From contig LFLA01000024.1 of NCBI GenBank assembly GCA_001542995.1, positions 68,499 through 132,498 on the forward strand: 64,000 bases of DNA, written 5' to 3'. Under the pieces are notes generated by a model that worked only from the letters and a program-made list of their open reading frames with translations, did no database searches and was not told where the DNA came from. The position numbers and the translations under genes are program-made. This document shows positions 2,309 to 4,555 of this stretch, one piece after another. This stretch comes from Nitrospina sp. LS_NOB. GTDB taxonomy: Bacteria > Nitrospinota > Nitrospinia > Nitrospinales > VA-1. Positions within the stretch are counted from its first letter, which is position 1, and each line of letters begins with the position of its first letter.

Positions 2309-2410
2309 CAACGAGCAATCGCGTTATTTGGCAAGCGAAAGTTTTTCTCGGCTGAATTGAGCTTTTGCCCTATCAACACTCGGCTAACCTGAGCCGTTCA
2401 CCCAAAGCCC

Positions 2411-2482
2411 TATTCTAACAAAAAAGTCGGGAAAACGTCCGCTGTTAGATTAGAGAGCTACCAACGTTGGTCCCGACCACAA
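2411..2482. repeat. ~70-bp direct repeat, copy 2
   Basis: Matches 2051-2119; the 3' 31 nt are identical. Confidence 0.85.
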
Positions 2483-2512
2483 CAATTCTAAAAATTAAAT
2501 TGGAAGCAATAT

Positions 2513-2917
2513 TTATCGAACCCTTAGTTCGACTGCCTTTTTTAATTCTTTACAAATCTCTATTTGTCCATCTTTTGCCTCTGGCCAATTTACTATCACC
2601 GCATGGAGCGGGTGGGATGAGGTTTCTGGTATCACATCTAATTTCTGTTTATTTCTAATTTGTTCTGCTTGTAGGACAGCTATAGCTTTTGGGGGCTTTC
2701 GCTTTAAACCTGCAAAAGCATCCCCTGACTCCCATATTTCTTTATCTTGCTTTAAAGTAGATGTCCTGAATATTGAGGTTTCTAATCTATCAAGCTGCTC
2801 ACAAAATACTGGCATCAGCCTATTCCATCGGATATTTCCTGAGCTTTCTGTAAAGTCTTGATTGTCAAAAAGAAATCTGGACAACTCTTCTTGATCTGAA
2901 ACTAAACTAAAATTCAA
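2513..2917 (-). CDS. Hypothetical protein, possible ADP-ribosyltransferase/RES-like fold toxin
   Basis: 134-aa ORF in an AT-rich island with spaced R (LSRF), S (ETSIF) and H (HPLHAVI) motifs. The fold call is inference. Confidence 0.6.
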   Translation of the reverse strand: MNFSLVSDQEELSRFLFDNQDFTESSGNIRWNRLMPVFCEQLDRLETSIFRTSTLKQDKEIWESGDAFAGLKRKPPKAIAVLQAEQIRNKQKLDVIPETSSHPLHAVIVNWPEAKDGQIEICKELKKAVELRVR

Positions 2918-2918
2918 A

Positions 2919-3317
2919 TTATTTCCCTTTTATGACCCTTAATATATTTTTACTAATGGGCTCGGGAAACCAAAATCTATTAAAAATTTCAACACCTCTT
3001 TGTTTAGCCCCATTTGCAAAAAGCCCTGCAAAGAATAATTCATCGTTTGAGCCAAAACTGACCGCGAAGGAAGTATCTGCATTTTCATGTTCCCAATCCA
3101 AGGCAAAAGAACCATCTGGCTCTAAAAGTACTGTAGGAATTAGTTCTAACAACGACTCGGGAATTAAACGAATAAATTCACGAATATTTCTAAAGGAATT
3201 AATATTACCTGCTTTACCTCCATAGTTATCAGCGTTTCCCCCTTGAGAATCTGCAAAAACTTGATCAATTTCTTCAAGAAGCAAATGAATTTGGCGCCCT
3301 AACAGGGGAATCCTCAA
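2919..3317 (-). CDS. Hypothetical acidic protein (candidate antitoxin)
   Basis: 132-aa ORF 1 nt from the downstream gene; P...EPDGSFALDW motif of the small proteins I recall next to TIGR04255 genes. Confidence 0.65.
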   Translation of the reverse strand: MRIPLLGRQIHLLLEEIDQVFADSQGGNADNYGGKAGNINSFRNIREFIRLIPESLLELIPTVLLEPDGSFALDWEHENADTSFAVSFGSNDELFFAGLFANGAKQRGVEIFNRFWFPEPISKNILRVIKGK

Positions 3318-3410
3318 TCAATTCTTCTAAATCAACTATAACTACTGAAGAACAGGAAAAGCTAATTTCGTCTGACTCAAAAGGCAACATGCTTCTTTCT
3401 TTCGGAGTAA

Positions 3411-4153
3411 TCATTGATATAGCTCCACTCCTTTTGGTGTGAGGGAGTTAAAAAATATTGAATTCTTAAAAACTCTTAATTTATTCAAGTTTTCATTAAT
3501 TTTAGTATTTTCATTTTGAATTACATCCAGGCTAAACACATCAATATCAAAGATAACAGGGAGTTTTGGTTCTTTTATTTTATTACGGTCTAAACCTAAA
3601 TAAACAATAGCAGAAACAGAATTATCATCATCGTAAAGGGTCATTTGATTTAAAAACCCTGCCATCTCAAAACGGGTGCCTTTTGGAGAAGTTGGTGAGT
3701 TTACTATAATTTCCTTTAATTCTACATTGCGAGGAATATTAAGATTATTAATAAATCTAGAACCTATTTTAATTAAAGCATTTCTTTTCAATATTTTATC
3801 TGCTTTATTCCAAAGTTCCAAAGCTTTAGATGAAAATTCTTCCCATTTAGAATATTTCCCTACCCAGACAAATGAAAAGCTATCCCTTTTTAACTGAATT
3901 ATTTTTTTCTTATCAACAGAATAAAAAATAATAACTTCTGGGCCCAGACACTCGGCTTGTGGTGCGGCTGGCTTATCTTTCCCAAAAGCGAAGTCTACTT
4001 TACCACGGCGAATTATTTTTTTTCAGGGAAGTCCTTTTCAAATGCTGAATGAACAGACTCAAGGATTTGGAATTCTGCTATTTTATTTTGGAACCTAAAC
4101 TCTATCGCCGCTTCCGTTATCGGTGCGTTTTTAAGGTTAGGGTGTTCGGTCAT
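3411..4153 (-). pseudogene. TIGR04255-family protein split by a frameshift in an A8 tract
   Basis: ATG at 4153 gives MTEHPNLKNAPITEAAIEFRF...FPEKK* (the L.NAPI.EA.IEFRF motif). After the A8 run at 4016-4023 another frame continues ...IIQLKRDSFSF...YSKWEEFSSKALELW...IGSRFINNL...IFDIDVF...LRVFKNSIFFNSLT. Confidence 0.75.
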
Positions 4154-4357
4154 TTTTTAATGCTCTTACAGAGAAAAATTTATCAACACCTCATATATAT
4201 ACTTAAAGCTAAGGTGTAATACAATTATACCCTTGGTAATTTTGAATTTACATAATTAAAAAATAAAGTACCTGCGATTTTTAAATTCAACCTTTTGAAT
4301 ATTTTACTGAAAATCAACATCAGAAAATGAGCCATACTCTGCCCCTGCGGCGAGCGG

Positions 4358-4555
4358 TTAGCCGTCGCCGAGCTGGTTGAGTTCGACAATAGACTCGGGG
4401 GTGACGAGTCCTTCAGGGTCGGACCCTAACATCCAGGGTTCCCGTTCATATTTTTCTGAAGCTTCGACATGTGCTATATAATCGGTCATTTGCTTCTGGT
4501 TGTCCTGTAAAAACTTTCGGAAAACCATTTTCGGCCGTTTCTCTCTTTTAGTCAT
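4358..4555 (-). CDS. Small hypothetical protein
   Basis: 65-aa ORF between tRNA-Arg and the island; no motif recognised. Confidence 0.3.
   Translation of the reverse strand: MTKREKRPKMVFRKFLQDNQKQMTDYIAHVEASEKYEREPWMLGSDPEGLVTPESIVELNQLGDG

Follow-up and report, generated by a model that had tools for sequence, protein, structure and literature searches.

A decaying copy of a mobile three-gene TIGR04255 cassette in Nitrospina, interpreted as a three-part toxin–antitoxin-type module

The subject of this paper is a small islet of foreign-looking DNA in a 64,000-nucleotide (nt) stretch of Nitrospina sp. LS_NOB (contig LFLA01000024.1, positions 68,499 to 132,498; we call the whole stretch the window, and all coordinates are window positions unless a contig of a relative is named). 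The islet lies in a cluster of stable-RNA genes and carries three coupled genes, all on the minus strand, which we call g1, g2 and g3 by their place in the cassette. Its G+C content is 28-41% in 300-nt windows across 2401-4350, against 45-54% in the flanks, and the first-pass annotation, which had pointed to an AT-rich island in a tRNA cluster and to a compact co-oriented trio downstream of tRNA-Arg, was right about both. It was also right to place the first gene in the TIGR04255 family, as the piece at 3411-3821 matches the family model at E 1.4e-10 with 41.4 bits (curated cut-off 30; profile positions 107-246) and the intact 247-residue (aa) homologue of a close relative, L001, scores 98.5 bits (E 5.5e-28), and to call the second gene acidic, with isoelectric points (pI) of 4.1-4.6 for its pieces and 4.6 for the C-terminal open reading frame (ORF). 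We think, with appreciable reservations, that the islet is best explained as one copy, recently damaged, of a three-gene operon that moves horizontally; our interpretation, which is partly supported, is that the trio is a three-part toxin–antitoxin (TA)-type module built wholly from uncharacterised families, and that the window holds a decaying copy of it.

The islet and its lesions

Two of the three genes are broken in the window (Table 1). The A run at which the frame of g1 breaks is one base shorter than in relatives, which in the alignment read GAAAAGAAAATAA or GAAAAACAAATAA there, and in g2 a deletion has removed 23 nt between two AATTCATTT repeats. The C-terminal ORF of g2 nevertheless contains the complete conserved 'NxDxYGxK ... 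EPDG ... DWE' domain, with homologues that are 73-99% identical; intact homologues of the entire protein are 168-175 aa long. Close relatives of the cassette are found on five contigs (L001 to L005, where L-numbers denote contigs or loci of relatives; one is 2.68 Mb long), at 66-87% protein identity to g3. L001 to L004 hold the whole locus, with genes uninterrupted at 247, 172 and 134 aa, and L005, which is cut at the contig start, has part of g1 and then genes of 168 and 132 aa.

Table 1. Features of the islet and of the surrounding stable-RNA cluster
Feature	Position	Strand	Remarks
g1, N-terminal fragment	4013..4153	minus	46 codons, then TAA; NCBIfam TIGR04255 at E 3.5e-4, 20.5 bits, profile positions 2-41
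A8 run, g1 frame break	4016..4023	minus	relatives have 9 positions, either all A or with a G or C within the run
g1, remainder	3411..4022	minus	203 codons in shifted frame (-1); stop overlaps g2 start (ATGA)
g2, N-terminal piece (tail region)	3274..3414	minus	46 codons; severed by the 23-nt deletion near 3280
g2, C-terminal ORF	2919..3317	minus	132 aa from TTG 3317, or 121 aa from TTG 3284
g3	2513..2917	minus	intact, 134 aa; TTG start 1 nt past g2 stop; candidate effector
Cassette leader	4154..4226	minus	homology to relatives' cassettes begins at ~4226 (L001) or ~4190 (L002), by blastn
3' trailer	2411..2512	minus	homology to relatives' cassettes stops at ~2411 (blastn); contigs of other runs diverge at 2411
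serS	7473-6190	minus	first in order in the stable-RNA cluster
tRNA-Ser(tga), tRNA-Ser(gct), then 202-aa lipoprotein-like gene	between serS and tRNA-Arg(gcg)	minus	
tRNA-Arg(gcg)	4748-4672	minus	upstream of the islet
65-aa ORF	4555-4358	minus	between tRNA-Arg(gcg) and the islet
tRNA-Ser(cga)	2308-2221	minus	downstream of the islet
tRNA-Ser(gga), SRP RNA, then dnaX	SRP RNA at 1663-1566	minus	complete the order of the cluster

Contigs assembled from public sponge-metagenome runs in Logan, to which we give X-numbers, place these lesions among close strains. One of them, X1, is the window over again, with 0 differences and both lesions, and is probably the source sample itself. In X2, which differs from the window at 13 of ~1850 positions, the extra base and the 23 nt are nevertheless present, and the lesions are therefore differences between strains. 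One extra base at the A run is likewise found in X3/X4, in X8-X10 (extra T) and in X11-X12 (extra G), and in none of X1, X5 and X14; the 23 nt stand behind 3280 in X2, X4, X5, X8, X9 and X10, and are placed behind 3289 in X11 and X12. It is very improbable, then, that both lesions are sequencing or assembly errors and that the cassette is intact in the organism: the break in g1 does fall in a homopolymer, where such errors classically arise, but sequencing and assembly errors do not take the form of a clean 23-nt deletion between direct repeats, X1 repeats both lesions (subject to the likelihood that it is the same sample), and the A8 state recurs in X5 and X14, from two other studies. On the strength of the run contigs we reject sequencing error for the deletion and regard it as unlikely for the A run. 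The first-pass annotation had implied a single frameshift, and the break in g1 is there; the second lesion, in g2, had escaped it.

The A run is of some interest in itself. Several strains have A9, which keeps g1 in frame, at least two or three lineages that are not mutually closest have A8, and in more distant relatives a G or C interrupts the run. X5, with A8, is ~97% identical to the window and X14 also has A8, whereas the far closer X2 has A9, so that the run has slipped more than once; from its sequence, it acts like a hot spot for slippage. Some full-length g1 could conceivably still arise by a -1 slip, of the ribosome or in transcription, on A-AAA-AAA ahead of the TAA. With g1 frameshifted and the tail of g2 severed, and with the core of g2 and g3 still open, the copy in the window is probably inert or down to a two-part remnant.

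A conserved, coupled and mobile trio

A scan of genome loci seeded with g1, restricted to one genome per species, returned 80 loci, and at 40 of them g1, g2 and g3 follow one another in order, in at least 14 phyla. The tree of g1 does not follow host phylogeny. The stop of g1 and the start of g2 overlap by 4 nt at 43 of 49 loci, and both the order of the trio and its coupling are far beyond chance. The second and third proteins form an acidic/basic pair (median pI 4.9 for g2 and 9.0 for g3), and all three genes are under purifying selection, according to ratios of nonsynonymous to synonymous substitution (dN/dS) of 0.24-0.54 for each of them among intact relatives. Approached from the other end, an exhaustive profile search with g3 gave 607 cluster representatives at E<=1e-3, every one a single-domain protein of ~125-165 aa, and wherever we looked up g3 genes with sufficient upstream DNA (L007, L008, L010, L104 and one JGI contig) the same trio was present.

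The cassette is mobile and travels on integrative and viral elements. In L007 it lies behind genes for a Prim-Pol protein, an excisionase and an integrase; in L010 it adjoins HTH, RNase_T/AAA and Bro-N genes; on the JGI contig it keeps company with an integrase and a methylase/ResIII pair; and in L104 it adjoins a Mu-F head (prophage) gene and a Dam methylase. Four of nine related predicted viral contigs in IMG/VR carry the trio, and a plasmid collection gave no match to g3. In a census of 135 ORFs within ~2 kb of 45 trios, restriction and helicase genes were the most frequent neighbours, ResIII being the commonest Pfam family at 5 of the 135 (a count without background control), and PADLOC recognised type I, IIG and IV restriction systems, PbeA, mads, HEC-06 and PDC-S05 among these neighbours. 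In another phylum, in an Opitutales metagenome-assembled genome, a gene for a 494-aa transposase-like protein, resembling those of insertion sequences (L068:5443-6927, minus), has been inserted between g2 and g3 of a trio that is complete in other respects, and the near-identical L057 has no insert there.

In its own clade, too, the cassette, as a unit of homology spanning ~4226-2411, is placed variably relative to the tRNA genes: after tRNA-Ser(cga) in L001, after an extra 375-aa gene in L002 and before tRNA-Arg in L005. In the window, the gene for the bacterial small signal recognition particle (SRP) RNA sits between tRNA-Ser(gga) and dnaX, and the cassette therefore lies within a cluster of six stable-RNA genes. 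In the leader, just 5' of g1, lies an inverted repeat of 6 nt, ACACCT (4217-4212) and AGGTGT (4191-4186), whose palindrome is also found in L001 and which, from sequence alone, we note as a candidate operator; promoter and terminator scans gave no more matches than shuffled sequence. An exact 20-nt direct repeat, AACGTTGGTCCCGACCACAA, occurs at 2100-2119 and 2463-2482. We considered it as a pair of att sites for the cassette and rejected the idea, as it brackets a 363-nt segment with tRNA-Ser(cga) rather than the cassette; the repeat probably belongs to a repeated tRNA leader. Beyond g3, the sequence of L001 and L002 joins directly to what follows the second copy of this repeat in the window, and tRNA-Ser(cga) is upstream of the cassette in the former and missing from the region in the latter. 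This tRNA gene has therefore moved, or been duplicated and lost, among close relatives.

Some smaller features of the neighbourhood deserve a mention. The 65-aa ORF at 4358-4555, which matches no family, adjoins tRNA-Arg in L001, L002 and L005 wherever the cassette sits. An extra gene of 361-375 aa, with no match in Pfam or NCBIfam, lies just 5' of the cassette in some relatives (L002:3275-4402 and L003:3-1088) and is absent from the window; in L001, instead, a gene with a Fic domain stands between serS and the tRNAs.

What the three proteins may do

The candidate effector is g3. Across the 101 family members that we sampled, and whose alignment was used for the structure model, S48 and H105 are invariant and E10, R14, P36, R51, W62, L93, A106 and W111 nearly so, and the protein in the window keeps all of these residues. 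The model, with a predicted local distance difference test score (pLDDT) of 95, is a compact alpha/beta domain of seven strands and four helices. The window protein has no match in Pfam, NCBIfam, PADLOC or PHROG; none of the 101 members falls in a Pfam family, or matches RES (PF08808) or any other ADP-ribosyltransferase (ART) family at E<=0.1; the family profile found nothing relevant among all PDB sequences at E<=10; and Foldseek returned nothing at E<=1e-3 from either PDB or BFVD, none of the BFVD matches being annotated.

What chemistry might such a protein perform, if it is a toxin? One answer, which we hold tentatively as a sub-hypothesis on toxin chemistry within the module model, is that g3 is an NAD+-using enzyme of the ART fold, akin to RES toxins or ParT, which would poison the cell by breaking down NAD+ or by ADP-ribosylating a target. 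The first-pass annotation had noticed spaced R, S and H motifs reminiscent of ART/RES folds; R14, S48 and H105 are invariant or nearly so over the 101 members, and none of these members matches a RES or ART model. In the structure model, the first strand bears R14, the second long strand bears S48 and a later strand has H105 at its start, which agrees in position and order with ART regions 1, 2 and 3 in the description of MbcT (PMC6436930). The signatures given in that work are R-S-E or H-Y-E, and R-E-S for RES; g3 has R14, S48 (with R51) and H105, with no conserved Glu/Gln at the third position. MbcT itself has Gly rather than Glu in region 3 (PMC6436930). Among 350,542 PDB chains, Foldseek ranked two ParT structures (6d0i_C, 6d0h_C) and two RES toxins (9r35_D, 6gw6_A) at 7, 11, 17 and 38, and four of the top 38 matches are unlikely to be accidental for so small a family. 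The scores themselves are poor (E 0.56-2.1, probability 0.06-0.11, template modelling (TM) score 0.31-0.33, root-mean-square deviation 8-9 A), and MbcT, DarT, Tpt1 and the classical ARTs are not among the top 50. We know of no precedent for an Arg-Ser-His set among ARTs, which also weighs against the idea. Since the fold matches recur but are weak, the third residue is His and no sequence model matches, we treat likeness to ART/RES proteins as an open lead of doubtful standing.

Alternatively, g3 could be a toxin of some other chemistry, for example a small ribonuclease with a Glu/Arg/His set, or a new fold with a new activity, and this we regard as possible though short of probable. It would account for the fact that a model of such high pLDDT finds no confident counterpart among the folds in PDB or BFVD; the conserved E10, R14, E46-T-S48, R51 and H105 are residue types that microbial RNases use; and a basic g3 with an acidic g2 is what one sees in nucleic-acid-directed TA pairs. 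Yet a match to a nuclease family or fold is equally lacking, and the spacing of these residues is, to our knowledge, unlike that of the barnase/T1 type.

The middle protein, g2, appears to be made of two parts. Its profile finds no solved relative among PDB sequences, the matches being designed helical bundles, which we dismissed. Its N-terminal tail has two short features, M-S/T-x-A at the start and G-hydrophobic-S-x-D/E-A/S near residue 20, and these reappear where g2 itself does not. Of the other 40 loci found with g1, 29 have two further ORFs 3' of g1, mostly tightly coupled; the third protein is DUF7689 (PF24738) at 22 of the 29, and a few loci have instead a pair of ~97 aa and ~175-198 aa. 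The g2 profile does not recognise the middle proteins at these loci, and the C-terminal domains of the two types are unrelated, but these middle proteins share the features of the g2 tail: the strict motif [FVLIM]S.[DE][AS] at residues 18-28 occurs in 18 of 50 g3-type proteins and in 9 of 28 of the other type, whereas shuffled sequences have 1.6 and 0.8. In the g1 tree, DUF7689-type cassettes form one clade nested among the g3-type, with 5 label changes against 25.7 in shuffles, and thus one g1 lineage, together with the tail, has exchanged its pair of core and effector.

The sister cassette itself, seen at L015, L019, L021 and 19 other loci (for example L015:611-2231), consists of a TIGR04255 gene, a middle protein of ~145 aa that bears this N-terminal tail motif and DUF7689, whose conserved YNC...H-type motifs are suggestive of a thiol hydrolase. 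A further variant is on the mobilizable plasmid pCRI9333.03 of Crinalium epipsammum, a cyanobacterium in culture (L100, 4001-5831), where a TIGR04255 gene is followed by overlapping genes for hypothetical proteins of 182 and 171 aa, neither of which matches g2 or g3, and TIGR04255 is found on a Thermus plasmid as well, next to unannotated partners.

For g1 we built a model from the intact L001 copy and 46 homologues (pLDDT 91.8), and it consists of two repeats of strand-helix-four strands-helix, the topology of a TATA-binding-protein (TBP) pseudo-dimer. Its fold matches are mostly TBP chains (E ~1e-3 to 2e-2, probability up to 1.0, TM ~0.3), with AdoMetDC and arginine kinase also present, and none reaches E<=1e-3. 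The SecB-like fold that had been proposed for TIGR04255 has to be given up, as SecB accounts for 0 of the top 50 matches to this model. A match to 9hnh_A among PDB sequences was also dismissed, this being a repeat protein aligned over a short helical stretch. The invariant polar residues of g1 are T13, E14, Y101, R129, R133, D203, D205 and K230, some of which fall by secondary structure on strands S1, S1' and S4' of the model, where they could form a binding or catalytic site. NCBIfam describes TIGR04255 as 'sporadically distributed' and of unknown function, and a full-text search of one literature library found no paper that names either TIGR04255 or DUF7689; to the family description we can add a fold class, a fixed first place in coupled trios and co-inheritance with particular partner pairs.

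The sponge metagenomes supply observations on how the parts may depend on one another, namely a natural series of alleles in near-identical symbiont strains. The trio is intact in at least 10 sequences, including X2, X3/X4, X9, X10, X11, X12 and a minor variant of X8, and all of the sequences with an in-frame g1 (at least 10) have zero lesions. In the window and X1, as we have seen, g1 and the tail of g2 are hit and the core of g2 and g3 are open. In X5, g1 has the A8 frameshift, g2 is intact and a frameshifting deletion of 115 nt removes H105 from g3. In the dominant variant of X8 (~830x, against 80x for the intact form), g1 is cut at 3544 with most of it lost, g3 has deletions of 172 and 77 nt, and g2 is kept, and in X14 just a remnant of g1 with two frameshifts is left. 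Every copy without a working g1 thus has a second lesion, including three of the three copies with the A8 frameshift (window/X1, X5 and X14); the core of g2 is retained wherever that part of the locus exists, and g3 is never left without it. Judged by sequence, this pattern fits g3 as a toxin, g2 as its antitoxin and g1 as a helper. If g3 is harmful, if the core of g2 neutralises it and if full-length g2 needs g1 by way of its tail, then a strain could survive the loss of g1 by one of two routes, inactivation of g3 or removal of the tail, and the strains would offer four allelic states: intact, helper and tail lost, helper and effector lost, and antitoxin only.

We infer from all this a simple scheme. 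In it, g3, a small alpha/beta protein, as a rule basic, in which a Ser-His pair is invariant and a Glu and two Arg are nearly so, would be the effector or toxin, and g2 would be an acidic two-part neutraliser, whose C-terminal 'NWDGYG' domain is the putative g3-specific partner and whose N-terminal tail of ~40 residues bears the short motifs common to the middle proteins of other TIGR04255-led cassettes. The helper, g1, would act on g2 through this tail, as a stabiliser, a sensor or a modifier, and would in this way decide whether g3 remains neutralised. That the trio is a horizontally mobile operon working like a three-part TA module, and one that may defend against phages, strikes us as the likelier account, though by no means a secure one. 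Indirect support for an arrangement of the classical type II TA kind comes from the acidic/basic pair, the tight coupling and a decay that keeps g2 while g3 is destroyed.

Several points weigh against this interpretation. Neither g3, by fold or sequence, nor DUF7689 is a recognised toxin; the further alternative third genes that we scanned have no Pfam match; and we found no experiments on any of the three families. The polar cluster of g1 resembles an enzyme or ligand site more than a passive chaperone. Neighbours of the trio are mostly housekeeping genes, and the enrichment among neighbours comes without a formal background control. For a link to defence, which the first-pass annotation had proposed as a check on an anti-phage role, speak restriction genes such as ResIII, mobile elements and kinship with the defence candidate PDC-M32 (see below). 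The decay series is small, with three or four independent events, and neutral erosion following any first hit would give the same series.

These same observations feed a different account, in which the trio, as a mobile accessory operon, serves some other function, for instance as a small regulatory or modification pathway with TIGR04255 as an enzyme, and in which the lesions reflect no more than neutral decay in a symbiont. A polar cluster in g1 that is invariant and looks enzyme-like, fold matches that, though weak, include the enzymes AdoMetDC and arginine kinase, third genes in which no toxin family is recognised and a largely housekeeping neighbourhood are all what it would lead one to expect. 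It fits less well with an AT-rich, foreign-looking operon that is sporadic across phyla, runs off host phylogeny and is carried by integrative and viral elements, with a tightly coupled acidic/basic pair and PDC-M32 kinship, or with a decay that is directional, the core of g2 being kept while g3 is destroyed, and we consider it improbable.

Returning to the three-part TA-type module, it can be pushed further, into a picture that, taken with all its parts together, we consider quite unlikely. TIGR04255 would be a new kind of control platform, sensor or enzyme, in which the polar cluster of a TBP-like beta-saddle recognises or covalently modifies the Ser-containing tails of unrelated antitoxin cores and so governs exchangeable toxin pairs; g3 would be a new, minimal clade of NAD+-using ART-fold toxins with an Arg-Ser-His site; and the A9 run of g1 in this lineage of sponge symbionts would be a slippage-prone on/off switch, its OFF state tolerated only with a second lesion.

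What does seem important is the scale of the phenomenon. TIGR04255, the 'NWDGYG' partner family and the g3 family (at least 607 cluster representatives; absent from Pfam) travel together over at least 14 phyla and onto phage-like contigs. Should the module model be true, they would represent a large unrecognised class of three-part TA or abortive-infection modules, with a helper that is not SecB and a helper lineage that has swapped its pair of antitoxin core and effector, and this would furnish the first functional annotation for TIGR04255 as well as adding content to PDC-M32.

Relation to known systems

Kinship by sequence links the trio to PDC-M32, one of 145 untested PADLOC candidates that were proposed from 'guilt by embedding' in known defence systems (Payne et al. 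2024, bioRxiv 10.1101/2024.01.29.577857). In a pool of 96 sequences (48 g2 and 48 g3), PDC-M32A was hit by 28 (best E 2.3e-6) and PDC-M32B by 3 (best E 2.4e-5), and on these grounds the pair of g2 core and g3 is a distant relative of this two-gene candidate. In the window, the core of g2 matches positions 277-335 of PDC-M32A weakly (E 0.014) and g3 does not match PDC-M32. The differences are considerable: the PDC-M32A model has 375 positions and is matched in its C-terminal part alone, the candidate is without TIGR04255, and the matches from the trio are weak, and absent for most members of the g3 family.

With RES-Xre, MbcTA and ParST, whose toxins have the ART fold and use NAD+ (PMC6436930), the trio shares a small putative toxin, a conserved Arg on the first strand and an acidic protein partner, and structures of ParT and RES toxins recur among the weak fold matches of g3. 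In contrast, no match to them is significant, g2 is not an Xre/COG5642 protein, g3 has His where ARTs have Glu/Gln (Gly in MbcT), and the trio has a third gene, which leads the operon.

In its logic the trio parallels the toxin–antitoxin–chaperone (TAC) systems. In CmdTAC, once the helper is lost from the complex, the antitoxin becomes unstable and the toxin is set free (Vassallo, Doering and Laub 2024, PMC11618068). The first-pass annotation had drawn this comparison, and what survives of it is a conserved operon of putative helper, acidic partner and small effector; what does not is a SecB-like helper. The trio differs from TAC systems in that its helper is a TBP-like TIGR04255 protein rather than a SecB-like chaperone and is encoded first rather than last, in that g3 belongs to no known family of TA toxins, and in that the extension of g2 is N-terminal. 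In TAC antitoxins the extension is C-terminal, and chaperone addiction is the analogy for loss of g1. The trio resembles CmdTAC and HigBA-SecB(TA) of M. tuberculosis in being a three-gene operon, one in which a putative helper would control an antitoxin that holds a toxin; the antitoxin-like g2 likewise has a terminal extension apart from its putative toxin-specific core, predicted in our case to bind g1; and the alleles that nature has provided fit a rule by which loss of the helper goes with loss of the toxin or of the extension.

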